Shown here: piece by piece, positions 10,036 through 29,413 of the stretch | Position numbering within the stretch: the stretch's first letter is position 1 | Layout: the number at the start of each line of letters is the position of its first letter | IMG/VR virus record: IMGVR_UViG_3300009130_000011 | Location: 1 to 64,000 of that record | Strand: one strand, 5' to 3' | Source of the DNA: a virus | Length of the DNA stretch: 64,000 nt | Notes under the pieces: model-generated | The model's database searches: none | Told to the model about the DNA's origin: nothing | What the model saw: the letters and a program-made list of their open reading frames with translations, nothing else | Translations under genes and position numbers: made by a program

Positions 10036-10751
10036 AAGATTATATCTTGAGTTTGTAGTATATGCTCAGCTTTTTTAGCAAATAATTTTTTAAGGTTTTT
10101 TATTTGTTTGTAGCCTGCTTTTCTTCCTTTTTCAGTAGTTTTAAATCCTAGTATTTCTGCGACCTCTTCTTCGCTTCTGTTTTGGATGAAGAGAAGTTCG
10201 TAAACTAAATATTGCCGATCTGAAAGAACTTCTTTAATTGCTCTATTAAGTCTTCCTCTCGCGGTGTCCATATCGTAAAAGCTTTCTTCTATGTGGTGCG
10301 CTTCATGAACATGATGTTCCAAGGCGACGGGCATTTTTATGTCATATGCATGCTTTTTTGTTTTCTCCCACTTCGCAAATAAGGGGCATTCAGAGTCCTG
10401 AAGCCCGCTACTAGTAAAACCACATAAGCTATCAACTTGCTCTGATTTTGTCGGCCCTGCTTGATTAAAAGGGCAGCTTAAGCATGGGCGTACAAAATTA
10501 CTATAATAATTACGTAGGATGTTCTTCAGTTGATTTGTGATAATTTTATTTATCCACGGAAGAAGGGGCCTTTCTTGATCCCATTGATGCCATTTGTTAT
10601 AGATGTGGGTTCTTATGATTTGAGATACATCGTCATAATCCACCCAAGCCAAAGAGCTTAGAGACCACTTACCCCTCCTTTTTTTGATCTCTTGATCAAT
10701 GGCGGGGAACATTTCCTCGTAGGAAACTTTGCCTTTCTTTTTTTTAGCCAA
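10032..10751 (-). CDS. phage sigma70-family factor (candidate late sigma) with a Cys-rich insert
   Basis: region 2-like DYDDVSQIIRTHIYNKWHQWD...PWINKII; region 4 LSDRQYLVYEL...SEEEVAEILG. Confidence 0.7.
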   Translation of the reverse strand: MAKKKKGKVSYEEMFPAIDQEIKKRRGKWSLSSLAWVDYDDVSQIIRTHIYNKWHQWDQERPLLPWINKIITNQLKNILRNYYSNFVRPCLSCPFNQAGPTKSEQVDSLCGFTSSGLQDSECPLFAKWEKTKKHAYDIKMPVALEHHVHEAHHIEESFYDMDTARGRLNRAIKEVLSDRQYLVYELLFIQNRSEEEVAEILGFKTTEKGRKAGYKQIKNLKKLFAKKAEHILQTQDIIL

Positions 10752-15218: not shown

Positions 15219-15527
15219 ATGAGAAAAGTAACTGAACAAATCAAGCGTGCCTTTGAGCAAGGCACATCCTTAAAAGTCGGCAACACCGAGACAGACGGCA
15301 ACACCGTTTGGCTACATGGCAACGCCATTGTCAAGCGAGATCCTGACGGGCTTGTTCGTTGGAGCTTGGCGGGTTGGAATACGCCCACCACACGCGAACG
15401 CGTCAACGGCATAGTGAACGCGGGCGTTCACCAAGTCGCTTTTGAGCCTGTACTAAACGGGCAAGTCATTAACTCATCTGATTGGTTCGCAAGCAACACA
15501 AAGTTGCCCAATCCTCTTGTGTTCTAA
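15219..15527 (+). CDS. hypothetical early protein
   Basis: 102 aa; LHGNAI...GWNTPTTRERVN. Confidence 0.75.
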   Translation: MRKVTEQIKRAFEQGTSLKVGNTETDGNTVWLHGNAIVKRDPDGLVRWSLAGWNTPTTRERVNGIVNAGVHQVAFEPVLNGQVINSSDWFASNTKLPNPLVF

Positions 15528-15528
15528 G

Positions 15529-15545
15529 TTGGCACGACATCTGAA
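15529..15545 (+). promoter_or_regulatory. sigma54-like -24/-12 motif
   Basis: TTGGCACGACATCTGAA, 28 bp before element 1. Confidence 0.55.
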
Positions 15546-15556
15546 CGGCCCTTTCA

Positions 15557-15623
15557 TAAGTCGTTGACTATCAGCCGGTTAGCCGGCGCAGGGCGGCGTA
15601 AGTCCTTCATTGCCAATGACTTA
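15557..15623. repeat. 67-bp palindromic element, copy 1
   Basis: TAAGTCGTTGACTATCAGCCGGTTA-GCCGGCGCAGGGCGGCG-TAAGTCCTTCATTGCCAATGACTTA. Confidence 0.9.
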
Positions 15624-15695
15624 CAACATACAAAAAAACGAAAAAAAAATAACTTTTTTCTTGCAATTCCACGAAAAATTCTTTAAGTTTATAGT

Positions 15696-15893
15696 ATGTT
15701 AAACAAGAAAATACAAGTAAGAATCCAAGAGTGGTCAACTCATTGGGCAGTTAAAATCTTTGACACAGGAACGGACTACCCTCGTGTTCGGACTGCGTCA
15801 AGCCTTTCCCACCTTCGCACCATAAAGCAAGAGGAAAAGCTTAACTCTCCACGCTTTCAAGTTGTAATGCAACGCAGGCATTTTAATGCTTGA
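15696..15893 (+). CDS. hypothetical early protein
   Basis: 65 aa, leaderless promoter at 15661. Confidence 0.7.
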   Translation: MLNKKIQVRIQEWSTHWAVKIFDTGTDYPRVRTASSLSHLRTIKQEEKLNSPRFQVVMQRRHFNA

Positions 15894-15924
15894 CTTTTAT
15901 AAAAAAATCCTTTAGTTTATACTT

Positions 15925-16179
15925 ATGAATTACTCAAACAGAAATGTCCCAACTCGGAGAGTCGAGTTTCAGAATGTAACGATGGAGCTTACCAAAAGAT
16001 TCCAAGATGACCCTAGCGTGGTCAAGACCCAACGCTTGCGGTTTTCTGCTGACCTAGACCAAGAGCTAGACAATGCCTTCCTAAAGTCTCACGCAGAGAG
16101 TGTTTTCAAGTTTTGGGACATCCTAGATGTCGAGCTTGTCCACTCCTTCGTTGACTCAACCGATCAATACATATACTAA
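15925..16179 (+). CDS. hypothetical early protein
   Basis: 84 aa, leaderless promoter at 15890. Confidence 0.7.
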   Translation: MNYSNRNVPTRRVEFQNVTMELTKRFQDDPSVVKTQRLRFSADLDQELDNAFLKSHAESVFKFWDILDVELVHSFVDSTDQYIY

Positions 16180-16180
16180 G

Positions 16181-16357
16181 ATGATAACAATAAAACAAAA
16201 CCCTAACTTCACCAAGTTCTTCCAAGTCTTTGCCTTTGGGCAGTACATCGACGAGGTCGAGCGTCGCAGTAAAGCCTTGCGTATAGCTACCAAGCTCGCC
16301 AAGCAACACAAGCAAGACTTTATAAATGTTGACGGCTTGATGCAAGAAGTGTCCTAA
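16181..16357 (+). CDS. hypothetical early protein, paralog of 21163..21348
   Basis: MITIKQNPNFTKFFQVFAFGQYIDEV; its stop TAA is the first 3 nt of element 2. Confidence 0.75.
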   Translation: MITIKQNPNFTKFFQVFAFGQYIDEVERRSKALRIATKLAKQHKQDFINVDGLMQEVS

Positions 16358-16421
16358 GTCGTTGATAATCAGGGCCTTAGGCCGCCCTGCGCCGGCTAAC
16401 CGGCTGATAATCAAGGACTTA
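16355..16421. repeat. 67-bp palindromic element, copy 2
   Basis: TAAGTCGTTGATAATCAGGGCCTTA-GGCCGCCCTGCGCCGGC-TAACCGGCTGATAATCAAGGACTTA. Confidence 0.9.
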
Positions 16422-16432
16422 CGAAACCGGCG

Positions 16433-16449
16433 TTCACATAGCGTGCCAA
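16433..16449 (-). promoter_or_regulatory. sigma54-like -24/-12 motif
   Basis: reverse complement TTGGCACGCTATGTGAA, 28 bp from element 2. Confidence 0.55.
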
Positions 16450-16566
16450 CTTAATAGCTTGCGGCAAGTATAAGCCCGGGTGTAATAAGCTATAAGCTAA
16501 GCTAAAAAGAAGCTAATAGTAAAAAAAAATCTTGTAAATATGCGTTTTATGTGCTACCTTATAGGT

Positions 16567-16758
16567 ATGAATGATAAAGATAAGAAAGTAAACGGCTTCA
16601 TCGCCAAAGTTAACATCGTCGACCGCAAGTCGGGCGACATCATCGCACGGAATCAAATCCTCAAGTGTGAGCATCACACCACCATTGATGCCTTGAATCG
16701 TGACCTCGCCAAGTTTGGCTTGCCACGCAAGTTTGAGTTTGTCGATTGGATTGCATAA
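16567..16758 (+). CDS. hypothetical early protein
   Basis: start MNDKD set by the promoter at 16532. Confidence 0.7.
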   Translation: MNDKDKKVNGFIAKVNIVDRKSGDIIARNQILKCEHHTTIDALNRDLAKFGLPRKFEFVDWIA

Positions 16759-16800
16759 AAAAAGCTTGCAATAAAACTTTAAATCCTTAGTCTTATACAT

Positions 16801-17034
16801 ATGAATATAATTGAACAAACCCGCAAAGAATGCAACCGCGAGCTTGACCTCGGTCTTGCTCTTTCCAAAGCTGAGGGAAATCTGAATTTCCTCGCAGGAC
16901 AATCCCACGAGAATAAGCTCGGACTAAATGCCATAACTCAAGACATGGCAATCCTTGACGCCCTTAATGCGGTACAAATCGCCCGCAAAGCTTTTCAAGA
17001 AATACTTTCAGAAAAGCGAAAAAAAAGCTTGTAA
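16801..17034 (+). CDS. hypothetical early protein
   Basis: 77 aa, promoter at 16766. Confidence 0.7.
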   Translation: MNIIEQTRKECNRELDLGLALSKAEGNLNFLAGQSHENKLGLNAITQDMAILDALNAVQIARKAFQEILSEKRKKSL

Positions 17035-17063
17035 TAAACTAAAAAATCCTTACTCTTATACTT

Positions 17064-17264
17064 ATGGAAAATACTGATTCACTCGACCGCACCGCCCACG
17101 CCTTCGGCATGACCGATCTCGAATTTGAGGAACGCTCTCAAGTCGAGGCTGAGATTGCCGCCCAACAAGTCATCCGTAGATGGCAAGAAGAGGAGCAGAT
17201 CCTCAGAGAGTCCTTTGAAGCTCTCAGCCTCTTTGACGAAGAGGAAAACCCCCATCTCTTCTGA
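17064..17264 (+). CDS. acidic early protein; N-terminus shared with 19849..20073
   Basis: DSLDRTAHAFGMTDLEF. Confidence 0.7.
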   Translation: MENTDSLDRTAHAFGMTDLEFEERSQVEAEIAAQQVIRRWQEEEQILRESFEALSLFDEEENPHLF

Positions 17265-17268
17265 CGGG

Positions 17269-17285
17269 TTGGCACGCTTCTTGAA
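17269..17285 (+). promoter_or_regulatory. sigma54-like -24/-12 motif
   Basis: TTGGCACGCTTCTTGAA, 28 bp before element 3. Confidence 0.6.
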
Positions 17286-17296
17286 CGGCCCTTTTA

Positions 17297-17363
17297 TAAG
17301 TCGTTCATAATCAAGGGCTTAGGCCGCCCTGAGCGAGCTAAGTAGCTGATAGCCAAGGACTTA
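17297..17363. repeat. 67-bp palindromic element, copy 3
   Basis: TAAGTCGTTCATAATCAAGGGCTTA-GGCCGCCCTGAGCGAGC-TAAGTAGCTGATAGCCAAGGACTTA. Confidence 0.9.
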
Positions 17364-17424
17364 CGACGCAAAAAAAGTTAAAAAAGTTCTTGACTTTTCG
17401 GGGTTGCTGTGCTATGTTATAGGT

Positions 17425-17483
17425 ATGATTAAGAAAATCCCAAACTAAGAGCCGTAGAATGGCGGGACGTGGCTCCCCGCAGA
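17425..17483 (+). ncRNA. micro-ORF (MIKKIPN*) plus pseudoknot unit, copy A
   Basis: own sigma70 promoter at 17390; GAGCC/GGCTC and GCGGG/CCCGC interleaved helices. Confidence 0.6.
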
Positions 17484-17544
17484 TCACCAAAAAAAACTTA
17501 AAATAATCCTTGACTTTTAGCCCAAACTCCGTTAACTTATAAGT

Positions 17545-17663
17545 ATGAAAATGAAAATCCCCAACTAAGCGCCGTATAAGTCGGGACGTGGCGCCCCGAA
17601 GATTATGAAAATGAAAACCCCCAACTAAGAGCCGTAGAACGGCGGGACGTGGCTCCCCGCAGA
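17545..17663 (+). ncRNA. micro-ORF plus pseudoknot units, copies B (MKMKIPN*) and C (MKMKTPN*), tandem with a 60-nt period
   Basis: promoter at 17510; copy B shows compensatory changes GCGCC/GGCGC and TCGGG/CCCGA. Confidence 0.6.
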
Positions 17664-17669
17664 GTTTGG

Positions 17670-17736
17670 TAACCCTCTTATAATCAAGGACTTACGCCGC
17701 CCCTGTCCGCGTAAGCGGTTGAATACCAAAGACTTA
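17670..17736. repeat. 67-bp palindromic element, copy 4
   Basis: TAACCCTCTTATAATCAAGGACTTA-CGCCGCCCCTGTCCGCG-TAAGCGGTTGAATACCAAAGACTTA. Confidence 0.88.
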
Positions 17737-17747
17737 TGAAACATAAG

Positions 17748-17764
17748 TACAGAAATCATGCCAA
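17748..17764 (-). promoter_or_regulatory. sigma54-like -24/-12 motif
   Basis: reverse complement TTGGCATGATTTCTGTA, 28 bp from element 4. Confidence 0.5.
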
Positions 17765-17842
17765 TTCATGCGATAGGATAGTGCAAAAAATTAGTTGAAA
17801 GTTTTTCTTGACTTTTGGCGTTTTTTGGGTTATGTTGTAGAC

Positions 17843-17938
17843 ATGAAATTAACTGAAAGAGAAAAAATCCTCCTCGCAATCGTCCTTCCTAAAAAGGAAA
17901 AAAAAGCAAAAAAAAGTTTGCAATTCCGCCAAAACTAG
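17843..17938 (+). CDS. 31-aa leaderless small protein (MKLTEREKILLAIVLPKK...)
   Basis: TTGACT at 17808, ATG 35 nt later; below the ORF-track cutoff. Confidence 0.5.
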   Translation: MKLTEREKILLAIVLPKKEKKAKKSLQFRQN

Positions 17939-17984
17939 TTTAGCTTATATACATACAACAAAGATAACCTAACTCAAAAAAATT

Positions 17985-18173
17985 ATGACCAAGTCCGAAA
18001 TGCTCAAAGAAATCTCCATCCTCCACGAAACGCTGAAAGATTGCGTTCTCACCATCGCTGACCGCGTTGCGATCCGCAACGAGATCGGTGACCTGCAGGA
18101 CAGGGTCGCCCTCCTCGACTTCCAAAACGAAGGCGAGGACTTCGACTTCGGTCATCACTCCGAATGGGAGTAA
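17985..18173 (+). CDS. hypothetical early protein
   Basis: 62 aa, promoter at 17918. Confidence 0.7.
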   Translation: MTKSEMLKEISILHETLKDCVLTIADRVAIRNEIGDLQDRVALLDFQNEGEDFDFGHHSEWE

Positions 18174-18223
18174 AAAGCAAAAAAAAGTTTGCAATCACCT
18201 AAAAAATCGTTTAAATTATACTC

Positions 18224-18445
18224 ATGAATAAAGCAGAATTAAATCAAAAATTCGAGCTTCTCAATCGAGAAGTAAATGCCCTTTGGGATTCTTCAAAGTC
18301 TTTGCAAGATCAATCTGCCGAGTACAGCCAAGCTTGGCAAGCTCGTTTCGAGGTTTCTCGTGAACTTCGCAACTTTCGGGAGCTTGGCGGTTCTCGCTCT
18401 CGTTGCCATGATATGGCTTTTAAGATCCGCGAGCAAAACGCTTAA
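18224..18445 (+). CDS. hypothetical early protein
   Basis: 73 aa, promoter at 18189. Confidence 0.7.
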   Translation: MNKAELNQKFELLNREVNALWDSSKSLQDQSAEYSQAWQARFEVSRELRNFRELGGSRSRCHDMAFKIREQNA

Positions 18446-18471
18446 AGTCTAACCTCAACAGAAAGGAAAAT

Positions 18472-18624
18472 ATGTTCATCCTCAAATCTATTCTCAACCA
18501 AGCGGGCGCCGTTTGGAAAGTTGAAAGCATCGCAATGCGCGAGCGTGACGCAAGGCGTCTCCTCCGTAGGCGTCAAGCACAAAATGACGGCAGTCGCCGT
18601 TACGGGCTTTTCCCTGCCAAGTAA
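18472..18624 (+). CDS. 50-aa small protein (MFILKSILNQAGAVWKVES...)
   Basis: GAAAGGA SD; below the ORF-track cutoff. Confidence 0.6.
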   Translation: MFILKSILNQAGAVWKVESIAMRERDARRLLRRRQAQNDGSRRYGLFPAK

Positions 18625-18641
18625 TTGGCACGCTTCTTGAA
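18625..18641 (+). promoter_or_regulatory. sigma54-like -24/-12 motif
   Basis: TTGGCACGCTTCTTGAA, 28 bp before element 5. Confidence 0.6.
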
Positions 18642-18652
18642 CGGCTGTTTCA

Positions 18653-18719
18653 TAAGTCGTTGACTGTCAGGCGGTTAGGCCGACAGGGGCGGCGTAAGTC
18701 ATTGATAGTGTGACACTTA
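18653..18719. repeat. 67-bp palindromic element, copy 5
   Basis: TAAGTCGTTGACTGTCAGGCGGTTA-GGCCGACAGGGGCGGCG-TAAGTCATTGATAGTGTGACACTTA. Confidence 0.88.
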
Positions 18720-18798
18720 CGACACGCAAGAGAATAGTGTAAGAAAATAGTTGAAAGTTTTTCTTGACTTTTCGCATTTTTTGGCTTATGTTATAGGC

Positions 18799-18906
18799 AT
18801 GAAAGTTAAAGTGAGAAAGACAATCCTTATGCCCAAAAGCATTCCGCACAAGCGGAAAAACAAAGTCTTGCCACGCAAGGCAAAGCACAAGGGAATTGTG
18901 CAATAA
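18799..18906 (+). CDS. 35-aa basic peptide with an ArfA-like RKxKH motif
   Basis: MKVKVRKTILMPKSIPHKRKNKVLPRKAKHKGIVQ; promoter at 18764; paralog at 25918..26037. Confidence 0.6.
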   Translation: MKVKVRKTILMPKSIPHKRKNKVLPRKAKHKGIVQ

Positions 18907-19410: not shown

Positions 19411-19671
19411 ATGAGCGAAGCAGAAGTTGCACGATACAACGAAACACTTGCAGATCTCTCTCAAAGCATTGATCTGGGTTGGAAAAAGTTTTGGCAAGAG
19501 CGAGGAATAAACGCGGCTCTTGCTTGTAAGGATATAAATACGGGCGGACCTTGGTACTCCCGAGGCTATGGCGAGCAGGACGCCACAGGCGTTTTCGCCC
19601 ACATGCTAGAACCCGCCGAGCTTATCACCCGAGCAGTCACCCGCAAGAAAACCTTAAAGCAGTTTCATTAA
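19411..19671 (+). CDS. hypothetical early protein
   Basis: 86 aa; stop overlaps element 6. Confidence 0.65.
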   Translation: MSEAEVARYNETLADLSQSIDLGWKKFWQERGINAALACKDINTGGPWYSRGYGEQDATGVFAHMLEPAELITRAVTRKKTLKQFH

Positions 19672-19734
19672 TCCTTGATAATCAAGGGTTTACGCCGCCC
19701 TGAGCGACATAAGTCGTTGAACACCAAGACCTTA
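19668..19734. repeat. 67-bp palindromic element, copy 6
   Basis: TTAATCCTTGATAATCAAGGGTTTA-CGCCGCCCTGAGCGACA-TAAGTCGTTGAACACCAAGACCTTA. Confidence 0.88.
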
Positions 19735-19848
19735 CGGAAACATAGTTAAAATCAAAATTCTGCCCGGGGTAGTTATTTGGTATTGTATTTGTTAAAATTT
19801 GTTTAAAAATCTCTTGACTTTTCCCCGTTTCCCCCTTATGTTGTTCTT

Positions 19849-20073
19849 ATGATTAACGAAAACGATTCCCTCGCCCGCACCGCCCACGCCTTCGGCATGA
19901 CTGATGTCGAATTTACCGCCCGCCACGGGTTCGCCCCCGTGGACGATCTCCCGCTCCCGCCTCCTCCTGCGGGCTTCACGGTCTCGCCCAGCGGAGCCAT
20001 CCGCGAGGCTAGCCCCGAGGAACTCAGCGACTGGGTCGCTGAGGATATCCTCAACGGAGAGTTTGACGACTAG
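19849..20073 (+). CDS. acidic early protein; N-terminus shared with 17064..17264
   Basis: DSLARTAHAFGMTDVEF; promoter at 19814. Confidence 0.7.
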   Translation: MINENDSLARTAHAFGMTDVEFTARHGFAPVDDLPLPPPPAGFTVSPSGAIREASPEELSDWVAEDILNGEFDD

Positions 20074-20077
20074 GCCC

Positions 20078-20144
20078 TAAGTCGTTGACAATCAAAGGGT
20101 TAGCCCGCCCTGAGCGGCGTAAGTAGCTAATGATCAACGACTTA
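20078..20144. repeat. 67-bp palindromic element, copy 7
   Basis: TAAGTCGTTGACAATCAAAGGGTTA-GCCCGCCCTGAGCGGCG-TAAGTAGCTAATGATCAACGACTTA. Confidence 0.9.
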
Positions 20145-20201
20145 CAAAAAGTATTGTTCTGTCGCCCGCCCGCCCGCAAAATTGTTATTTAGCTATTTGC
20201 G

Positions 20202-20243
20202 AAAAACCCCCCATCCGCCTTTCCGAAGGGCGAATGAGGGGCT
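20202..20243 (-). terminator. hairpin terminator where the + and - early blocks converge
   Basis: CCCCCCATCCGCCTTTCCGAAGGGCGAATGAGGGG stem with a T-tract on the minus strand. Confidence 0.6.
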
Positions 20244-20355
20244 TCAATAACTAATAACCTAACCAATAATAACTAACCACTAAAAATTTTCATTGCAATG
20301 CCACATAAAAGCGAAAGCTAAAGCCCACGGCAAGAAAATAAAAAGATCTGCCCAC

Positions 20356-20607
20356 TCACCCATTGCCCAAGATTCCTTCAACAACGGGTTTTGCCACAAG
20401 GTTTCTGATGGCAACACCATCTCCGTACTGACTACCCCTAACGGCAGACTTGAACTTGCGAGTGCTATACTCATAAAAAGCATTGACCACTACGCCCGCC
20501 TTGTTGACATAAGAGAAACAAAGCTTGTCCCCTTGCTTGTTTACATTTTGCGGTTGGTACTTTGCCACCGCATTAGCTTTTTCTATGAATGAGAATTCTG
20601 ATTGCAT
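20356..20607 (-). CDS. hypothetical early protein
   Basis: 83 aa, AGGAGG SD. Confidence 0.7.
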   Translation of the reverse strand: MQSEFSFIEKANAVAKYQPQNVNKQGDKLCFSYVNKAGVVVNAFYEYSTRKFKSAVRGSQYGDGVAIRNLVAKPVVEGILGNG

Positions 20608-20621
20608 AATATGTTTCCTCC

Positions 20622-20909
20622 TTAGTTGTTGTTGTTGTAAACTTCACGCATCTCGGAGCTTACTCCGAAAGATTCGTCTTCCTCGTCAATGTCTTCAGCA
20701 GAGTCGCTGAACAAAAACTGAGACTCGTCCTCCAAGTCTTCTTTTTGACTATCGAGCAAACCATGCTCGACAACCAATTCTTCGGTCTTCACATCCTCGA
20801 CAAACTCTTGGGCTTGATCGCTAAGTGCGACTCCCTTGGCTTGCTCGAAAGCTTGACGGATGATCTCGATGCGTTCTTCTTGAGTGAGTTGTTCTTGTGT
20901 TAATTCCAT
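20622..20909 (-). CDS. highly acidic early protein
   Basis: 95 aa D/E-rich; TTGACT-17-TATATT promoter, leaderless. Confidence 0.7.
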   Translation of the reverse strand: MELTQEQLTQEERIEIIRQAFEQAKGVALSDQAQEFVEDVKTEELVVEHGLLDSQKEDLEDESQFLFSDSAEDIDEEDESFGVSSEMREVYNNNN

Positions 20910-20924
20910 AGTGTTTAATATAGT

Positions 20925-21122
20925 TTAGTTTGAGAATAAAGTCAAGCTTTCGTTTTCTAATTGTATGCGAATATATGGCTCAGAATATTCGTCTGTGTCC
21001 ATGTCTGCATAATTACAATCAACAAAATCGGAAACTTCGTTTACTCCGTTGTTGTTTTCTGATTCATTAACTACGAATGAGCAAATGTCATTTCCAAAGT
21101 AATCTTCAATTTTTATCTTCAT
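20925..21122 (-). CDS. hypothetical early protein
   Basis: 65 aa, leaderless promoter. Confidence 0.65.
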   Translation of the reverse strand: MKIKIEDYFGNDICSFVVNESENNNGVNEVSDFVDCNYADMDTDEYSEPYIRIQLENESLTLFSN

Positions 21123-21162
21123 GTGTTTAATATAGTTTAGTTGTGATCAGTAGTCAAGCCCA

Positions 21163-21348
21163 TTAGGCATTTTCTTGAACTTTTTTTACTTCGCCAAAAG
21201 CGTGAATGTGGGCGACTCCGTTTTGTTTTGCAATGGTCTTTGCTAGACGCAATGCCTTTGCGTTACTTTGCACCTCGTCAATTAAATTACCGAAGGCGAA
21301 GACTTGAATCCACTTGGGAAAGTTAGCGTTTTTCTTAATAGTTATCAT
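21163..21348 (-). CDS. hypothetical early protein, paralog of 16181..16357
   Basis: MITIKKNANFPKWIQVFAFGNLIDEV. Confidence 0.75.
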   Translation of the reverse strand: MITIKKNANFPKWIQVFAFGNLIDEVQSNAKALRLAKTIAKQNGVAHIHAFGEVKKVQENA

Positions 21349-21452
21349 ACATAAGATACTAAGGACTTTTGAGTAAACCACAACAAAAAAAAATGTAAAA
21401 TAATCACTTTATCCGCCCGCTTATATCCTTCATAAGTTTCTCTAATAATACG

Positions 21453-21519
21453 TAAGTCTTTGTCTTTCAATGACTTGCGCCGCCCAGAGCGCCCTAAGTG
21501 CCTGAGTATCAATGACTTA
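21453..21519. repeat. 67-bp palindromic element, copy 8
   Basis: TAAGTCTTTGTCTTTCAATGACTTG-CGCCGCCCAGAGCGCCC-TAAGTGCCTGAGTATCAATGACTTA. Confidence 0.9.
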
Positions 21520-21681
21520 GTAGCCTAACCAAACCAAAACCTCTTGTGCTTCATACTCTTCCCTGTCTCCCAAGTCATCAAAGAATTGCTCGATATCTTC
21601 GCAATGATGCCTTGCCAATTCAAGCAAAGCTCTTTCTCTCGTTATAGTTAAACCTTCGGCTGAATCGTAATAGTCCATCAT
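21517..21681 (-). CDS. 54-aa protein (MMDYYDSAEGLTITRERA...WLGY)
   Basis: overlaps the stop of the GP88-like gene; its own stop lies in the last 3 nt of element 8. Confidence 0.65.
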   Translation of the reverse strand: MMDYYDSAEGLTITRERALLELARHHCEDIEQFFDDLGDREEYEAQEVLVWLGY

Positions 21682-22394
21682 GAATTTATACCTTCTTTAA
21701 CGAATCCTGTCAAATCTTTTTTGGCAAGACCTTTTTCGATAAGCCCGACGACCACGCCTTGCTTGTCAAGAAATCGCAAGTCCGATTCGTCGCCATTGAT
21801 AACCTCGACACCATTCCAAGTTTCAGGTAATTGGTTACGAAAGACAACGGCAACATTACCGCCCATTTCCAAAACTAGCTTGGCGATCTTTTCATTCGTT
21901 TCGGAGCATGAAAAAGTCAAGTGGTAGTTGCTTGGCAACTCGCCATTGAGAAAGCGTTGCATCCTCTTAAATGACTTGGTATAATCATAAAATTGAGTCT
22001 TGCCGTGCTTTTCAAAGAGGGTTACCCCATCTTCGTTTATAATGTTTTCCCATGCAATATCGCTTGTAAGGTTAGGACGGAAAACCGCTTGCAAACCTTT
22101 CTTGCTTGCCGACTTAATAGTTGAAGTAATTTCCTTTGATAGCTTGGCAAGGAAATCGAACCTTTGCTCGAAAAAGAGCTTAGTCTTTGCAATTCGTGAA
22201 TCTTGAACAGAATTCATTTGCCCACGACCTGCCGTATTCAAACAAGCCATGGTGCAACCTTTGGAACGCCATTGGCAAACTTCATAACCCGACAAATTAG
22301 CGGGAGCTAAGTGGATGCCTTTAGTTAAATATCCGAACGCCTCGCCTTTTGTGATCTTGGCGTTCCCTGCGGTGAGTAGAGTTGTTTTAATCAT
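21678..22394 (-). CDS. GP88-like phage protein
   Basis: C..RSKGC...CL, RPNLTSDIAWE, QFYDYTK, NYHLTFS, GDESDLRFLD. Confidence 0.7.
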   Translation of the reverse strand: MIKTTLLTAGNAKITKGEAFGYLTKGIHLAPANLSGYEVCQWRSKGCTMACLNTAGRGQMNSVQDSRIAKTKLFFEQRFDFLAKLSKEITSTIKSASKKGLQAVFRPNLTSDIAWENIINEDGVTLFEKHGKTQFYDYTKSFKRMQRFLNGELPSNYHLTFSCSETNEKIAKLVLEMGGNVAVVFRNQLPETWNGVEVINGDESDLRFLDKQGVVVGLIEKGLAKKDLTGFVKEGINS

Positions 22395-22421
22395 AATAGA
22401 ATACTAATTGAATTAGTTTGA

Positions 22422-22622
22422 CTATGCAAGCCTAAAAATAAAATCTTCAAAGTAATCGGGTTCAAGCCCGAACTCACTCATAAAGGTATGCTCCCATTCG
22501 GAAAGGTCGCCGCCGGCTTCCCAATCAGCTTTCATTTCGTTGAAGAATTGGATAACTTGCTTGACCGCCTCGGCTTGCGTTAAGCCGTCGCGGGACATTA
22601 GGACTTTTACTGTTTCTTTCAT
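22422..22622 (-). CDS. hypothetical early protein
   Basis: VLMSRDGLT...FGLEPDY; start MKETVK set by promoter spacing. Confidence 0.7.
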   Translation of the reverse strand: MKETVKVLMSRDGLTQAEAVKQVIQFFNEMKADWEAGGDLSEWEHTFMSEFGLEPDYFEDFIFRLA

Positions 22623-22687
22623 TCCTATATACTGACAGATTCTCAGTAAAACACAAGAAAAAAATTGCAACTAAGTGAAAATAGTTG

Positions 22688-22754
22688 TAAGTCCTTGAAT
22701 ACCAACGCTTTCCGGCGCCCAGAGCGACGCAAGTCGCTGATTGTCAACGACTTA
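22688..22754. repeat. 67-bp palindromic element, copy 9
   Basis: TAAGTCCTTGAATACCAACGCTTTC-CGGCGCCCAGAGCGACG-CAAGTCGCTGATTGTCAACGACTTA. Confidence 0.88.
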
Positions 22755-22982
22755 GTCGTCTTCTCTTAGCTCATCGAAATACTCTTCGAGCCTTGGGAGG
22801 TCAAGACTGCTGTCGTTGTAAGCTACCCTGTCGGGAGTCTCGGTATAGCCCACCTCTCGCATTTGCTCAACAAAGTTTGCGTAAGTTCCGCACTCTTTGG
22901 CGAAACTATACATTCCCTCGTCGTTGCCGATCCAAAGAGCGATATTCCAAGTTTCTCTGTTTTTCCATCCGTTGTAGCTCAT
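22752..22982 (-). CDS. hypothetical phage protein (YNGWKNRETWNIALW)
   Basis: 76 aa; stop lies in element 9. Confidence 0.75.
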   Translation of the reverse strand: MSYNGWKNRETWNIALWIGNDEGMYSFAKECGTYANFVEQMREVGYTETPDRVAYNDSSLDLPRLEEYFDELREDD

Positions 22983-23272
22983 GAGTTTGCCTTTCCAATT
23001 GTGTAGGGTGAATGTTGGGTGAACTTGTCGATGTGAGATTCAAGCTGTCTTATGATCCAAACTGCACGCTCGATGGAGCAAGGATCAAAGCCTTCCATGG
23101 GTTGTCCGTTTTTTAATATAATATACATATCTTATAGGTTCTCCGTGTTATGTCCTGCTCTCCTCATTGAGTGCAAGGCTTCTTGCTTTGTCATGTTGAA
23201 TCGGGACATGAGATACATGAGCAAGTCATGCCCTGTGAGTTGTTGGTTTCGATCTGTCATGGTAGTATTCTC

Positions 23273-23710
23273 TCAGTATTGGTCTAAGTTGTCAAGACCT
23301 AATTCTTTGTTATGTTGTTGTCTTGCGTCAGTAAGAAGGCAGACCCAAGCGAAGTCGTTAAGATGTGCTTGATGCATTAGCTTAGTGATCTGCGTGGGAG
23401 TTTGCCACGCAAGAACATCATCACCAATAGACAAGGGAAGCATGGTGTCTCTACCATCATACCACATTGCGACCTCGTAAGTGTTGTCTGAATGGTCGCC
23501 ATACAATCCAGTACCATCTGCAATGTTTTGCACGGCTGAGATGGTGAATTGATTCCTTGAACCAAAATCAAGCATGGCTTGAATAGCTTTGCCATCGGCA
23601 AATCCCGCGTGAGACTTGAAAACTAAATCATCAAACCCCTTGAGGTTGCTCCTTGGGGCAGAGGCTTGATAATCTGAAATGTAGTTTGGTATATCGTAGT
23701 TAATAATCAT
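23273..23710 (-). CDS. hypothetical protein
   Basis: 145 aa, leaderless promoter. Confidence 0.7.
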   Translation of the reverse strand: MIINYDIPNYISDYQASAPRSNLKGFDDLVFKSHAGFADGKAIQAMLDFGSRNQFTISAVQNIADGTGLYGDHSDNTYEVAMWYDGRDTMLPLSIGDDVLAWQTPTQITKLMHQAHLNDFAWVCLLTDARQQHNKELGLDNLDQY

Positions 23711-23787
23711 AAATAGATACTAAGCCCGTTTTGTCTTAATTGCAAGAAAAAAGATGCTAAATCGCAAAAAAGGTTTGCTTAATGCTG

Positions 23788-23854
23788 TAAGTCATTGTCT
23801 GGCAAGGACTTGTGCCGCTCAGGGCGGCATAAACCCTTGAGTCGCAAAGGCTTA
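23788..23854. repeat. 67-bp palindromic element, copy 10
   Basis: TAAGTCATTGTCTGGCAAGGACTTG-TGCCGCTCAGGGCGGCA-TAAACCCTTGAGTCGCAAAGGCTTA. Confidence 0.9.
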
Positions 23855-23859
23855 TGAAA

Positions 23860-24066
23860 TTAGAACTTCAATGCCTTTAGGCTCGTGTTGTTCTTTAGCC
23901 ACCTGCGAAGCGGGTGAAATGCTTTGGCAGACATATGAGCCAAGTATTGCTCTCCGTTCTTTGCCATGATCATATACCCATTTGCAGTTGCCCGAATCTC
24001 CTGAATATCGGGGCATTTCTTTATTTGCTTTAGAACTTTGCGATTACCGCTCTCTGAATGTTTCAT
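23860..24066 (-). CDS. small basic protein
   Basis: 68 aa, TTGACA promoter. Confidence 0.65.
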   Translation of the reverse strand: MKHSESGNRKVLKQIKKCPDIQEIRATANGYMIMAKNGEQYLAHMSAKAFHPLRRWLKNNTSLKALKF

Positions 24067-24374
24067 GATATAAATCTAAACAATTTTTTATTGATTGTCA
24101 ACCACTAAGCCCAAGAAAATGAACTATTGCGATGGCAATCATGATGATTAAGAATGCTAGTGAGAATGTTTGTTGTTGCGTCATAATAAAGTGAATTGAG
24201 AGCCACGGAGCCGCCCGTGGTAAATGCTACCCCGTCTTACCGAGGATGTGACACTAGGTGCCTATAAGGCTTGGTACTGCACTCTCAAAATTGTGAACCT
24301 TTTTCTCTCTCCCGAAGGTTGTAGGCGTGTGCTGACGCCTCGTTGTTCAATGCTTTCGCATCTACAGAAAAAGC

Positions 24375-24491
24375 AGCCCTCTGTGAGATTCGAACTCACC
24401 TCTTTGACTCTAAAACGATGATCGGTCGCTCGCAGGCTTAACTAGTATACTGCCGAGAGCCATTGTTTTCACCAATGTAAACTAAGAGGGC
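24375..24491 (-). ncRNA. tRNA-like RNA with a 44-nt insertion in the anticodon loop
   Basis: acceptor GCCCTCT/AGAGGGC, D-arm GTTT..TGG..AAAC, stem TGGCTCT/AGAGTCA, T-arm GTGAG-TTCGAAT-CTCAC; sigma70 promoter upstream. Confidence 0.7.
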
Positions 24492-24574
24492 ACAAATGAA
24501 ATTGATTATCAAAAGAACTAAATACAATTGTGACAGAATACCGAGCGAAGTCAATACTTTTTTTCTTTTTGTCA

Positions 24575-24641
24575 TAAGTGTCTGTTAATCAATGGTTTGC
24601 GCCGCTCAGAGCGCCATAAGCCCTTGACCATCAATGACTTA
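24575..24641. repeat. 67-bp palindromic element, copy 11
   Basis: TAAGTGTCTGTTAATCAATGGTTTG-CGCCGCTCAGAGCGCCA-TAAGCCCTTGACCATCAATGACTTA. Confidence 0.88.
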
Positions 24642-24660
24642 CAGAAAGTAAATGCCCAAT

Positions 24661-24689
24661 AAAAAAGCCCCCTCGGGGTGAGGGGGCTT
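24661..24689 (-). terminator. Rho-independent terminator after the DUF932-like gene
   Basis: AAAAAAGCCCCCTC-GGGGT-GAGGGGGCTT. Confidence 0.85.
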
Positions 24690-24714
24690 ATTTGCCTATT
24701 TGGCGACTGACCCT

Positions 24715-25644
24715 TTAGAAGGGGTAGTCATCCTCTGCATCATATAGATCGGCAGGAACTTCGCCATCTATGTTTCCTGCTACCTCAAGAACTTGAGGGG
24801 CAGGGGCATGAGCAACTTCGACAAGTTCAGCTTCCTCGACTTGAGAATCGAAAGCTGAAAGATCGAAACCGACCTCAGAGTCAAGAACAGAGTGCAATGC
24901 CTCAGAGCGTTGAGGCAAGGCAACAAGATTGCCCTTGTATACCTCGGTAAAGGCATTATAAAGGGAGTTCATGTTTCTGTCCCAAAACTCGGTGTGGTCA
25001 GACTTTTCCCATTGGTCAACCACATCAGCAATCTTAGTCTTGCTGACTGCACCTGCTTTGTAGGCACGAATCACAAGATCGTTGACTTGAGCGTTGGTCA
25101 AATCAAAATCCTTGTAGGATACGATGCGTTGATCTTGACCCATCCAAAAATTGAACAACTTGCCCAAAGTGCGAGAGATCACATGATCTAGCTCGGAAAG
25201 GATGTTCTTAGTGTGCCTGCGAGCCAACTTGACCGAATTGGTAAAGATGAGGTTGTCGCAAACAAATGGAGCGTCACCTGCACACAATCCTGCAGGGAAG
25301 CACTTGTCGTGAGCATTACGCAATCCAACGATTGTGCCTCTCTCGGTGTTTTCCCTGTTTGGGTGAGTGACCTCAAACAATCCAAAGTAGCGTTTGCCAC
25401 CTCTTGCGAGGTTGTGGCACTCGTCTACAACTTCAAACCCACCTTGCTCAAGATGGTTACGAGTCTTGTCAATCAAGAGATTGTGCGAAATAGGCTGATA
25501 AGAAACGGAGTGCGTTCCGTCCTTGTTCGCCTCTTTGCGATACTCGATATCGGGAGTCACTACATCAGCGACTTCCCCTAGCGTTACTACCTTATGCTCG
25601 CCTCCGCAGATGGCGAGATTAATTTTGTTTTTCGTGTTAGACAT
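24715..25644 (-). CDS. DUF932-family protein
   Basis: YQPISH, GKRYFGL, GLRNAHDK, FVCDNL, RRHT, SLYNAFTE. Confidence 0.7.
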   Translation of the reverse strand: MSNTKNKINLAICGGEHKVVTLGEVADVVTPDIEYRKEANKDGTHSVSYQPISHNLLIDKTRNHLEQGGFEVVDECHNLARGGKRYFGLFEVTHPNRENTERGTIVGLRNAHDKCFPAGLCAGDAPFVCDNLIFTNSVKLARRHTKNILSELDHVISRTLGKLFNFWMGQDQRIVSYKDFDLTNAQVNDLVIRAYKAGAVSKTKIADVVDQWEKSDHTEFWDRNMNSLYNAFTEVYKGNLVALPQRSEALHSVLDSEVGFDLSAFDSQVEEAELVEVAHAPAPQVLEVAGNIDGEVPADLYDAEDDYPF

Positions 25645-25682
25645 GATTATATTCTCTCAGTTTTTTTGTTAATTGTCAAGGG

Positions 25683-25928
25683 TTAATTTCTGTAAAAGTC
25701 TTGTGTGGTATCTTCTGACATCAACTTTTCGTAAAGTGATGCTTGTTCCGAAACGATCTTGAAGCTTATGCCGATAAGGCTAATCATTGCTAAGTCTTCC
25801 TCGTTGAGCTTGCCCATTTCATTCATGGGGTTGATGAGCTTCTCGAATATGAAATCCATACCCGAAGACATTACCTCTTCTGCTTGGGGGCATTCAAATT
25901 CGTTTGTGAAATCTTCATTAATATTCAT
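25683..25928 (-). CDS. hypothetical protein
   Basis: 81 aa. Confidence 0.6.
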   Translation of the reverse strand: MNINEDFTNEFECPQAEEVMSSGMDFIFEKLINPMNEMGKLNEEDLAMISLIGISFKIVSEQASLYEKLMSEDTTQDFYRN

Positions 25929-26037
25929 AGCGTTTTTTATGTTTGAGTTTTCTGTCTAAGGTTTTGTTCTTCATCTTGAAGGGGCGAGCCTTAGTGAAAA
26001 GGATCGGCTTTCTAATCTTAATTTCCCTTGCTTTCAT
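25918..26037 (-). CDS. 39-aa basic peptide with an ArfA-like motif, paralog of 18799..18906
   Basis: MKAREIKIRKPILFTKARPFKMKNKTLDRKLKHKKRYEY; leaderless promoter. Confidence 0.6.
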   Translation of the reverse strand: MKAREIKIRKPILFTKARPFKMKNKTLDRKLKHKKRYEY

Positions 26038-26142
26038 AATATATATTCTGACAGATTTTGAGTAAACCGCAAGAAAAAAAAAGTTTTTAAGTGAAGTTTT
26101 TTTTGTCGCTTATAGCTAGAATAAGCTGAGCTTATGATTCCG

Positions 26143-26209
26143 TAAGTCGTTGGGTCGCAAGGACTTACGCCGCCCAGAGCGCCCTAACTCGTTGGTATGG
26201 AGCGACTTA
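26143..26209. repeat. 67-bp palindromic element, copy 12
   Basis: TAAGTCGTTGGGTCGCAAGGACTTA-CGCCGCCCAGAGCGCCC-TAACTCGTTGGTATGGAGCGACTTA. Confidence 0.9.
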
Positions 26210-26539
26210 TGCCATCGCGTTGTGCATAGATTCGTAGAAACCTTTGTCTGCCGTCCCATCGTCTTTGCGAACTTGAAGCTCCTCCGTTTCAGCAGGGAAG
26301 ACATGGCAAGGTTCGTCAGCACCATTTTGCTTAATGTACCAAGCGGGTGGATCGAAAGGTTGAACAAGCATTCCAATGAAGCCATACTCCACAAAATACT
26401 TCAAAACTTTTGATCGACCAATGCCATTGATCTTTACATTAACTTCTGATCCTACAGCAGGTATGGGTTGATCTGATCCCCATGCTAGTTTCTCAAACTC
26501 GGTGTAGGAGTTTACGGGTTGTTCGATTTTTTCGTGCAT
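26207..26539 (-). CDS. hypothetical protein
   Basis: 110 aa; stop lies in element 12. Confidence 0.7.
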   Translation of the reverse strand: MHEKIEQPVNSYTEFEKLAWGSDQPIPAVGSEVNVKINGIGRSKVLKYFVEYGFIGMLVQPFDPPAWYIKQNGADEPCHVFPAETEELQVRKDDGTADKGFYESMHNAMA

Positions 26540-26570
26540 AATAGTATTCTCTCAGTTTTTGTTGTGATTG

Positions 26571-26792
26571 TCAATTACAAAATGGATCGGGTTTCCCAAG
26601 AGTATAATCCCATGAGATAGTTGGGTCGCAGTCTAGCATCTCTAATACTTTCTGCCAAGTTTCAGCTACCTGCGTAGTAAATTCACTCTCTCCCATTTCG
26701 GGGTAGACATGACTTATGTCGTTTGGATCGTAGACATTAAGGACATCAAAGATTACCTCAAGGTCGGCTCGGTTTAGGCTAACTTTATCCAT
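26571..26792 (-). CDS. hypothetical protein
   Basis: start MDKV chosen from the overlap with the upstream gene. Confidence 0.55.
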   Translation of the reverse strand: MDKVSLNRADLEVIFDVLNVYDPNDISHVYPEMGESEFTTQVAETWQKVLEMLDCDPTISWDYTLGKPDPFCN

Positions 26793-26967
26793 TTTGCTTT
26801 GCTTCTTCATTTTTAACTTTGCTAAGTTGGTCAATAGTCTTCGCAAGAAATATAAGTTCTTCCCTTGCAGTCCTCTTCCCCTCAAATGAGGCGTTTTCGT
26901 TTTCGAGAACCGCAATGTAAATCTTTACTGCGGATTCCCAAGTCGGAGTCATATCAATCGTTTTCAT
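26785..26967 (-). CDS. hypothetical protein (IDMTPTW)
   Basis: 60 aa, leaderless promoter. Confidence 0.65.
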   Translation of the reverse strand: MKTIDMTPTWESAVKIYIAVLENENASFEGKRTAREELIFLAKTIDQLSKVKNEEAKQNG

Positions 26968-27007
26968 AGTATAAATCTTAAAAAATTTTCGTTAAGTTGT
27001 CAAGCGT

Positions 27008-27427
27008 TTACCACCAAGAAGAGTAAAATACTTTCTTGCCTTGTGCTATGGCTTTGTACGCATCAGATATAAACTGCAAGTCAGTTTCCTTGTAATAGTA
27101 ATCACCATCTTCGTAGGGCGTTCCATCCTCCTTCTCCCAAGAGTAAGAATCACTACCAAAGAAGAAACCGCCTGTTTCGGGCATATGCTTTTGATTGATA
27201 ACTGCCTCAAGTTGCTCAAGGTCAGTAAGCGTTAGCTCGACAGGAACACAATTAAATTCTCCCATGCCCCCGCTATCTAAATCATCTAAATTACCTTCGT
27301 ATGGTCTGCCCTTGTCCTCCCAAAGTTGCTCCATGTATCCTTGGAGGCGGTTGTGCTTTCTCCAATCAACGAGATGCTCGGTTTCTCCGTTCTTGTCTTT
27401 TGCGTATGCGTATTGATCTAGTCCCAT
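27008..27427 (-). CDS. hypothetical phage protein (MGLDQY...WRKHN...GFFFG...YSSWW)
   Basis: 139 aa, AGGAG SD. Confidence 0.75.
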   Translation of the reverse strand: MGLDQYAYAKDKNGETEHLVDWRKHNRLQGYMEQLWEDKGRPYEGNLDDLDSGGMGEFNCVPVELTLTDLEQLEAVINQKHMPETGGFFFGSDSYSWEKEDGTPYEDGDYYYKETDLQFISDAYKAIAQGKKVFYSSWW

Positions 27428-27523
27428 GATTTTCTCCTTATGTTTAAGTTAATTTGTATATATGAGTATGACAGGTCATAAGTAAAACGCAAGAAAAAAA
27501 ATCAAATAAAGTTAAAATAGTCA

Positions 27524-27590
27524 TAACCCGTTAGCTATCAAGCACTTACGCCGCTCAGGGCGACGCAAGCCGCTGATAGTCAACGACTTG
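27524..27590. repeat. 67-bp palindromic element, copy 13
   Basis: TAACCCGTTAGCTATCAAGCACTTA-CGCCGCTCAGGGCGACG-CAAGCCGCTGATAGTCAACGACTTG. Confidence 0.88.
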
Positions 27591-27641
27591 CGAAGTTTCT
27601 CATTAACCCTACAACACGAACATACTCAAAGGCTTATTTGG

Positions 27642-27875
27642 TTAGGCTCTATTTAGTGATACGATTCTATCATATCGAAAAGAGCGAATGCCATTCTTGT
27701 TATGGCAGTATGCCCTGAAGCCCGCAGTAACAAGCTTCTCACTTACATTGCCAAACTCATTGACATGCAAAGGCTTCTCAATGGTGTACATTTCGGTGCG
27801 TCCATCCTTAGTGGTATAGACCAAGCTATACAATGGGTTGAACATTCTTTTAATTTTATTAATTATCTTCTTCAT
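27642..27875 (-). CDS. small WYL/Sm-like fold protein (putative)
   Basis: FRAYCHNKNGIRSFRYDRI resembles the WYL-domain RxFRxDRI motif. Confidence 0.45.
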   Translation of the reverse strand: MKKIINKIKRMFNPLYSLVYTTKDGRTEMYTIEKPLHVNEFGNVSEKLVTAGFRAYCHNKNGIRSFRYDRIVSLNRA

Positions 27876-29291
27876 TTGTATTATCCTCCGTTATTGGGTT
27901 TGCGTTATAAAAATTGTAAACATCACACGCTTCTTGAGAGTTATCACATGTCACGCCTATGACATCCCTTGGCTCTTCAATGGGACTCCAAGGTGTCTCC
28001 GACTCTTCAAAATATACTGCCCACAATTCTGCGTCTTCATCATATTCGGGAAGACCAAGAGGTTTGCCGACACATACTGCTTCTACATGTTTATTCATAA
28101 ATCCCACTCTCCCGCTTTTACATTGTCAATATCTTGCATCGCCTTATCATAGGCGGTGCTTTCGCTAGTGTCTTGAATCTCGTCATCGTATAGTTCAAGT
28201 ATATCATTTGCATACTGAATGTTAAAATTTTCTTCTTTAACTAATCGTTCTAGTTCTGTTTTTAATTGTTTTCTCATAGTGCTAGTCTCGTAAGTTTTGG
28301 TTCGTAGTTATGAAGGGTTACTCCGAAGTGAGATGCAAGCTCGGCAATCAAATCGTTGTAGTGCCAAGTGTCGTAGGCATGATTAAGCAAGGCTTCTTGT
28401 TCGTCTGCGGTGTGACCATCTCTAAGTTCGTCATAAATCTCGAATATGTTCATGTTGCCATCCCACATATTCACTTGCCATTCGATGTCTGCTTTATCCA
28501 TTTTTAACCTCCTTGATAATTTTTTCCATTTGTTCTAAGACGGACTTCTTGTTACCTTTTAATCCGTACTCGGCTTTTACGATTGAATATGCTGATTGAC
28601 CTCTTCTGCTCATTCCAAGGCACTCCAACTTGAGAGCGGATCTGAGACTGAGGAATCGAAACATATCGATTTGTTCGGGTGTGTCTAATGTAATCATGGT
28701 TAAAATACTATTGAATTAATGCGTCTGTGTCAACACTTTTCTCATTGTTTTTCTTTAATTCCCAACTAATATCATAGAGGTACTGACTGATGAAGTCGAG
28801 CGATCCCGCTATGTTTTTTAATTGAAACAAAGTTTCATCGTTGTTCTTTCTCATCTCGTAGAGTTCGTCTGCAATTCCATTGATTGCTACGACATCTTCG
28901 GATAGTTCGTGTCCTCTTTTAAGGATCTGCTTTGCTTTTTCCATAGTCTTATTCATTTGACATTTCCTCCTCGTCTAGTACTTTTTGTTTTAGCTCCTCT
29001 AGCAATTCAAAGGTTGAGTACCAAGGATCTGTCTTGTCTACCTCACCCTCCATTTCACTATATAAAATATAATCTTTAACTTCCTCAATACATTGGGAAA
29101 CAGGAATCTTAATCCTAAGCATTCTCATTTTGCTCCTCCTCTTCTCTGACTTTCATTAATAGCACGGCAAGCGTGGCAAATGTTTCTCCCCAAGGACTAT
29201 CGTCATTAGTCGCTCCAAGGCGTTGTAGTTTCATCATCACTTGTTCAACGGCAAGTGAGAGATGGTATTCGTTGTCTTGTTCAATCTTCAT
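27859..29291 (-). other. run of small overlapping hypothetical genes (27859..28107, 28095..28277, 28274..28501, 28494..28697, 28708..28956, 29115..29291)
   Basis: co-oriented, tightly packed ORFs with internal TTGAC promoters. Confidence 0.65.
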
Positions 29292-29346
29292 ACCTATTAG
29301 TTTGACAGATTCTTGGGTTAAGTCAACACCTTTTTTCAAATAAACG

Positions 29347-29413
29347 TAACTTACTGAATACCAACAACTTGCGCCGCCCAGAGCGCCGTAACCCCTTGAC
29401 CTTCAGTGACTTA
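29347..29413. repeat. 67-bp palindromic element, copy 14
   Basis: TAACTTACTGAATACCAACAACTTG-CGCCGCCCAGAGCGCCG-TAACCCCTTGACCTTCAGTGACTTA. Confidence 0.85.

Follow-up and report, generated by a model that had tools for sequence, protein, structure and literature searches.

Five boxes fused to palindromic elements in the early region

The stretch of DNA analysed here, referred to as the window, comprises the first 64 kb (positions 1 to 64,000) of the IMG/VR virus record IMGVR_UViG_3300009130_000011, which has 102,754 bp and a GC content of 37%, is about 76% complete and belongs to a phage present in marine metagenomes. In its early region five short boxes resembling promoters of the sigma factor sigma-54 (RpoN) stand at a fixed distance from 67-bp palindromes built as double dyads, and it is this box-plus-dyad module that we describe and try to explain. 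The features concerned, in coordinates of the window, are the following.

15219..15527, plus strand: Kyano_Gp96-like early gene (PF23790, E = 4.9e-8)
15529..15545, plus strand: box 1, TTGGCACG-N5-TGAA, predicted +1 at 15556
15557..15623: double-dyad element 1
16355..16421: double-dyad element 2
16433..16449, minus strand: box 2, predicted +1 at 16422, conserved in the relative G001
17269..17285, plus strand: box 3, predicted +1 at 17296
17297..17363: double-dyad element 3
17670..17736: double-dyad element 4
17748..17764, minus strand: box 4, TTGGCATG-N5-TGTA, predicted +1 at 17737
18625..18641, plus strand: box 5, predicted +1 at 18652
18653..18719: double-dyad element 5
19668..29413: nine box-less double-dyad elements, starting at 19668, 20078, 21453, 22688, 23788, 24575, 26143, 27524 and 29347

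The pattern TTGGCAYG-N5-TGNA occurs five times in the window, compared to 0.09 on average and never more than 1 in dinucleotide shuffles, and the whole genome of 102,754 bp contains no copy beyond this set in the early region. An earlier note on this DNA, made from its letters alone, had reported five sigma-54-type motifs at these places, all of which were thus recovered by the scan. Its account of their layout agrees with ours as well: each box starts 28 nt from the TAAGT edge of its palindrome and is directed into it, the predicted +1 is a purine (A, G, A, A and A for boxes 1 to 5) preceded by a pyrimidine (C, C, T, C and C), the C at -12 is replaced by A, A, A, T and A, respectively, and boxes 1/2 and 3/4 form inward-facing pairs.

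Box 1 is sense-oriented and starts 1 nt past the stop of the gp96-like gene; in its orthologue in G001 all box positions are unchanged. Boxes 3 and 5 start 5 nt and 1 nt past the stops of the genes 17064-17264 and 18472-18624, respectively. Box 2 is antisense to the early genes and stands back-to-back with an early promoter at 16532, and box 4, also antisense, lies 43 nt from the -35 of a divergent early promoter.

In every element two 25-nt arms, ideally TAAGTCNTTGAT-A-ATCAANGACTTA, enclose a GC-rich centre of 17 nt. Between 15.5 and 29.4 kb there are fourteen such elements, of which the first five alone have a box. In element 3 the centre is inverted relative to the box when compared with copies 1, 2, 4 and 5, an outcome to be expected if the two inverted arms of a single element recombine. 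In addition, the flank following element 5 (18723-18860) is paralogous to that of element 4 (17767-17904; repeat D6), and between these two sites the box-plus-dyad module is inverted as a whole. The TTTC before the predicted start mirrors YGAMA on the far side of the element and is therefore part of the dyad, not of the box.

The arms had also been called IHF-like, after the integration host factor. Indeed, 10 of the 17 matches of the IHF pattern WATCAANNNNTTR in the genome lie inside elements; however, the conservation of the arms, which keep GACTTA/TAAGTC beyond the IHF consensus, far exceeds that consensus, and from their sequence they look like a specific dyad site. Two other identities of the elements were discarded. 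Neither transposon ends nor miniature inverted-repeat transposable elements seem to fit, as target duplications were not seen and boxes never occur at both ends of one element. For intrinsic terminators, zero palindromes were called as such, and the flanks are without T-runs that could give a U-tract.

Conservation and selection of the module in related phages

Megablast against phage records gave zero matches, and a tblastn search with TerL reached only about 25% identity, in Bacillus phages. The module was traced in IMG/VR with two scans, one of which required TGAAC and TTT, but not the palindrome, while the other required only TTGGCANG, TG and TAAGT; the conservation of TTGGCA is partly built into these patterns. 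Combined, the scans found box and dyad together in 23 distinct copies, spread over about 14 related viral contigs, with the consensus aaR-TTGGCAYG-N5-TG[A/T]AC-N5-TTTC-R-TAAGT. TTGGCA, Y at position 7, G at position 8, TG at positions 14-15 and the offset to TAAGT are invariant over the 23 copies. Although the second scan did not require them, W at position 16, A at 17, an invariant C at 18, the TTTC and an upstream AAR are conserved too. Over the 23 copies the offset amounts to 28 nt, or to 29 nt in one contig, and this holds also where the palindrome had not been required, so that the loss of spacing in related phages, named in the earlier note as a possible refutation, did not come about.

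Five close orthologous pairs differ by nine substitutions, all of which fall into the two N5 spacers or on +1 and none into the 17 box positions. The chance of such a distribution is (11/28)^9, or approximately 2e-4, from which we conclude that purifying selection acts on the box, which is thus more than a passenger of the repeat. Likewise, box positions are invariant and spacers have freely diverged even where the RIIA proteins of the contigs share no more than about 45% identity. The motif is thus real and under selection.

Approximately 75 dyad elements were detected among the relatives, 26 of them with a box, in every case on a single side, and each box adjoins a dyad. In G001, with a RIIA that is 91% identical, the box is kept only at the homologues of elements 1 and 2. 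With respect to the flanking early genes the antisense orientation prevails (20 versus 5 when judged by promoter context, 12 versus 4 by open reading frames), and in this layout the box and the next early promoter point away from each other, 40-86 nt apart, a spacing that is not fixed. A conserved target gene downstream of the box was not found among these contigs; only the gp96-like gene recurs nearby, on either side. In 8 contigs a homologue of this gene is followed by the module, whose box abuts the stop codon in 4, while in 4 the module is flipped. The flipped orientation in orthologues, together with the paralogous flanks of elements 4 and 5, suggests that the 95-bp module is autonomous and indifferent to the genes ahead of it. 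We found no published description of such a module.

Pairing of the dyads, early cassettes and host

The strand carrying the box folds more stably than its complement in 21 of 24 copies (20 of 25 in a second analysis), and pairs of the G:U type outnumber those of the A:C type in the arms by 56 to 26, in sense and antisense copies alike; 40 box-less elements showed no pairing bias relative to the gene strand. The polarity of the dyad follows the box and is real, yet it is no proof of RNA. Its origin lies in the half-sites: the forward ones (TAAGTCNTTGA, running with the box) have been preserved better than their reverse counterparts, and transitions in the decaying halves alone are expected to give approximately 1.5 G:U per A:C pair, compared to an observed ratio of 2.15:1. 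For the elements, RNAalifold returned no consensus structure and Rfam no match at a permissive threshold. Arm-arm pairing amounts to 77.2%, versus 79.1 +/- 1.0 with partners shuffled among copies, and within-arm pairing to 79.2%, versus 80.8 +/- 0.9. Compensatory changes in the arms do not rise above shuffles, and the marks of a structured RNA family, helices kept by compensatory change or an Rfam match, are missing. Arms that fit a common consensus, but not each other, are the signature of protein-binding DNA, and by their sequence the arms look like such DNA rather than like RNA helices. The GC-rich centre is modestly self-complementary when compared with shuffles (mean z = -1.2, 86% below 0).

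From about 14.4 to 20.1 kb the window contains small plus-strand genes, nearly each of which has its own promoter of the form TTGACT/TTGCAA-N17-TAnnnT, and 20 promoter-like sites were observed versus 7.7 +/- 2.7 in shuffles. These promoters end 6-7 nt before the ATG, resulting in leaderless early cassettes, and the promoter repeats D2, D4 and D5 terminate on the ATG. The early region is mosaic between the window and G001. Such an arrangement, with a sigma-70-type early promoter and a stem-loop between small genes and with modular shuffling, corresponds to the boundaries of the promoter-early stem-loop (PeSL) cassettes of T4-type phages (PMC2839356, PMC4122927).

In contigs from several marine metagenomes, breaks or new joints coincide with dyad elements and promoters in the segment 14400-21400 of the window, examples being 15672>15902, 19799>20092 and 15201>17388, which points to a natural gain and loss of cassettes among co-occurring relatives. 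Between the inward-facing modules 3 and 4 lies an array (17390-17663) of three units (repeat families D9, D10 and D12), in each of which a leaderless micro-ORF (open reading frame) of 7 codons precedes a GC-rich repeat. One contig from an RNA library links 17480 to 17600 and represents a copy-number variant of this array.

The record also codes for TerL, rIIA/rIIB, DNA ligase, PhoH, the Kyano_Gp96-like protein and two Sigma70_r2 proteins, as well as for two tRNAs and one transfer-messenger RNA (tmRNA). The Sigma70_r2 proteins, one of 176 aa (63398-63928, minus strand; 36.9 bits) and one of 239 aa (10032-10751, minus strand; 19.2 bits, under the cut-off), are plausible readers of the -35-less promoters of the GTGTATAAT type that stand 8-12 nt before many late-gene ATGs. 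The tmRNA is a one-piece molecule (L061:5785-6182, minus strand; genome 89785-90182) with a very basic tag of 30 residues ending in LALAA. In addition, Rfam gave a tRNA match of 38.6 bits at 24375-24491 on the minus strand of the window, which covers 117 nt for a model of 71 positions, was not called by ARAGORN and adjoins a canonical terminator (hairpin plus T-run) near 24650; it may represent either a tRNA interrupted by an insertion or intron or an element that only resembles a tRNA.

As regards the host, a DUF1501-type gene (L061:2449-3720, minus strand; genome 86449-87720) shows about 50% identity to proteins of Verrucomicrobiota and is 31-43% identical to those of Planctomycetota, suggesting that the host phylum is likely Verrucomicrobiota. 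The domain Sigma54_DBD was found in all 5 genomes of one set from this phylum and in 60 of 61 genomes of a sample spread across it, and was absent from the Synechococcus control. That the host encodes rpoN, as the earlier note had asked to be confirmed, therefore applies to the candidate hosts, with the host itself being assigned through the DUF1501 gene only. A BLAST search with the tmRNA against 301 Verrucomicrobiota genomes matched only the universal 3' end and thus tells nothing about the host, and counts of TGGCACG-N5-TGMW in five Verrucomicrobiota genomes were barely over the reversed control and were uninformative.

What may read the box

In its -24 half the box matches a sigma-54 promoter in full (R-Y-TGGCAYG), with the C/T and G/A degeneracy seen in real sigma-54 sites. 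GG is present at -25/-24 in 23 of 23 copies, within TTGGCA followed by C or T and then by G(A), and TG stands in the exact -14/-13 register (GG-N10-G). At -13/-12 the G is correctly spaced, but the -12 base is A (14 copies) or T (9 copies) instead of C. Among the sites enriched in chromatin immunoprecipitation (ChIP) of Salmonella sigma-54, those of pspA, pspG, hydN and STM0649.S have TGT or TGA in this place, the pspA site being TGGCACGCAAATTGTATT (..TTGTAT) and the intergenic STM0649.S site TGGCACGCCTTTTGATTA (..TTGATT); the first three are established sigma-54 promoters and STM0649.S is a ChIP-enriched site (PMC3844500). As these sites share the deviation, the missing C is out of the ordinary, yet no reason to discard sigma-54. 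The stable closed complex, with its fork junction, is described as depending to a large part on the -12 element (PMC5095919), and a systematic non-GC variant of this element could alter how firmly the polymerase is locked.

Other sigma factors fit less well. If TTGGCA is taken as the -35 of a sigma-70 promoter, followed by 17 nt and TTTCRT, the -10 is without A at position 2. A site for an extracytoplasmic function (ECF) sigma factor (TGAAC ... CGT) is contradicted by the variation of AA (TGTAC, TGTGC, TGTCC), by the lack of conservation of CGT and by a spacing of 13-15 nt instead of 16-18. The two Sigma70_r2 proteins of the phage were also considered as readers of the box, but a role at the -35-less promoters of the GTGTA type elsewhere in the genome is more plausible for them.

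We tentatively favour the explanation, though with less than even confidence, that the module joins a promoter or docking box of the sigma-54 type to a double dyad resembling an operator or enhancer, within PeSL-like early cassettes. The dyads and the strong sigma-70-type promoters on leaderless start codons form the PeSL-like boundaries of small shuffled early cassettes. The sigma-54 holoenzyme of the host would dock on the box, and initiation would start at the purine on the edge of the dyad. The two conserved 25-bp dyads downstream would bind a protein, as an operator or a downstream enhancer, which would decide if the docked polymerase fires. Since the 95-bp module behaves as a self-contained unit that would function whichever way it points, it probably acts locally, either through a short RNA that runs into the dyad and the 3' end of the cassette before it, or through a poised polymerase. 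The earlier note had proposed either sigma-54 promoters transcribing the palindrome or docking sites that trap the holoenzyme, combined with IHF-like sites; the conserved and selected sigma-54-like unit at a fixed distance from the palindrome stands, and the IHF-like arms look like a specific dyad site.

Several observations weigh against sigma-54 as the reader. The C at -12 is absent from all 23 copies, and the conserved AC after the -12 element is unexplained by the sigma-54 consensus. Genes for enhancer-binding proteins of the bacterial kind (bEBPs; PF00158), for sigma-54 (PF04552) or for HU/IHF (PF00216) were not found in the phage, whose record is about 76% complete, and no conserved upstream element or enhancer was found near the boxes, the spacing to the neighbouring early promoter being variable. 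Most copies face against the early genes and into no gene. The sole metatranscriptome (X20) consists of assembled contigs that break at repeats and carry no information on start, end or strand. Furthermore, the host assignment comes from a single auxiliary gene, the DUF1501 gene, and a cyanobacterial host would be without sigma-54.

A less probable alternative is that the box is the third recognition block of a composite site (box, TGWAC and dyads) for a phage protein or another DNA-binding protein of the host, with a possible role in regulating early genes, in recombination or in DNA architecture, the likeness to the -24 element being convergent. A sequence-specific protein surely reads the arms, as they are conserved in sequence without covariation, and the TGWAC and TTTC blocks, of which the latter belongs to the dyad, are left unexplained by sigma-54. 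The constant lack of the -12 C, the function of the module in both orientations and the many unannotated early proteins of the phage fit such a site as well. It does not account, however, for an 8-nt block that matches the -24 element including its natural degeneracy, is preceded by R-Y and lies exactly 10 nt from a TG, and no other known bacterial or phage factor with such a site turned up. We consider it unlikely that the sigma-54 holoenzyme docks, but never fires, and thereby acts as a roadblock or insulator between cassettes or as a multi-copy sink for the sigma-54 of the host. Closed complexes of sigma-54 are stable and silent without a bEBP (PMC3844500, PMC5095919), which would suit a phage in which neither a bEBP gene nor an enhancer was found; independence of orientation and the position at cassette borders fit a role at the level of DNA, and palindromes without U-tracts are not self-sufficient as intrinsic terminators. 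A decoy, however, needs neither a fixed distance to the dyad nor a pyrimidine-purine step at +1, five sites per genome make a small sink, and a non-consensus -12 should weaken the lock of the closed complex, as would follow from the role of this element (PMC5095919).

That the module is a small-RNA gene, whose functional product would be the palindrome itself as a hairpin RNA of about 70 nt transcribed from a sigma-54-type promoter, appears improbable. The predicted start is the first base of the hairpin, the fold of the box strand is the more stable one, with an excess of G:U pairs, the centre is self-complementary beyond shuffles, and indifference to orientation would suit an autonomous RNA gene. 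Small RNAs driven by sigma-54 are known, such as Qrr and GlmY/Z, and provide a precedent. The excess of G:U pairs is nevertheless largely due to conserved forward and decaying reverse half-sites, no terminator follows the hairpin, and the elements lack an RNAalifold consensus, an Rfam match and arm-arm or within-arm pairing above shuffles. It is most improbable that the box is a functionless piece of repeat copied along with some palindromes: its occurrence only within the repeat family and on only a third of the elements would agree with this, but not its invariance beside diverging spacers in contigs with RIIA of about 45% identity, nor the absence of box substitutions (0 of 9) between orthologues.

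A bolder form of the sigma-54 explanation, which we regard as rather doubtful, is that this phage lineage recruited the sigma-54 polymerase of its host to the borders of its early cassettes by means of a variant box without the -12 C, which helps to lock the closed complex, either for transcription independent of both an activator and sigma-70, or as a poised boundary or sink that would blunt the sigma-54 stress regulons of the host. We know of no virus for which either use of sigma-54 has been described, and to our knowledge very little has been learned of how uncultured marine phages control their early genes. Should sigma-54 indeed be the reader, a second form of polymerase, enhancer-dependent or deliberately unlocked, would join the early regulation of phages, and gene shuffling of the PeSL type would be linked to a regulatory module. 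The motif could then also help in host assignment, as it requires rpoN-positive hosts.

Sigma-54 promoters with downstream enhancers were reportedly described by Correa and Klose in 2005 for Vibrio cholerae FlrC at flaA and flgK. The phage dyads, for which no binding bEBP is known, differ from these in that they begin at +2 and also exist without a box; common to both would be dyad-type protein sites, predicted in the phage, downstream of a sigma-54 start.

With bacterial sigma-54 promoters such as pspA, pspG and hydN (PMC3844500) the phage boxes share YTGGCAYG at -24, TG at -14/-13 and a purine start, predicted in the phage, about 12 nt further on; A or T at -12 is shared with pspA (TTGTA) and STM0649.S (TTGAT; PMC3844500). 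In contrast to the bacterial promoters, the putative promoter boxes of the phage lie at the borders of gene cassettes, mostly in antisense and with neither an enhancer nor a bEBP identified, and have a conserved AC at -11/-10 and a dyad from +2. Small early genes with a strong early promoter each, a stem-loop or palindrome between them and mosaicism among close relatives are common to the early region and PeSL cassettes. The palindrome of the phage is, however, a 25-17-25 double dyad with sequence-conserved arms and without a U-tract, and a third of these palindromes carry a sigma-54-like box, which PeSLs as described do not have.

The view of the earlier note that sigma-54 sites are rarely described in the early regions of lytic phages has to be tempered, as a sigma-54-like promoter was reported in Pseudomonas phage YuA (Ceyssens et al. 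2008, cited in bioRxiv 10.1101/2023.10.13.562163). As far as the citing preprint describes it, YuA has a promoter attributed to the sigma-54 of its host, as is tentatively proposed here. This is a single promoter before genes, whereas here a repeated module tied to a palindrome extends across a lineage of uncultured marine phages.

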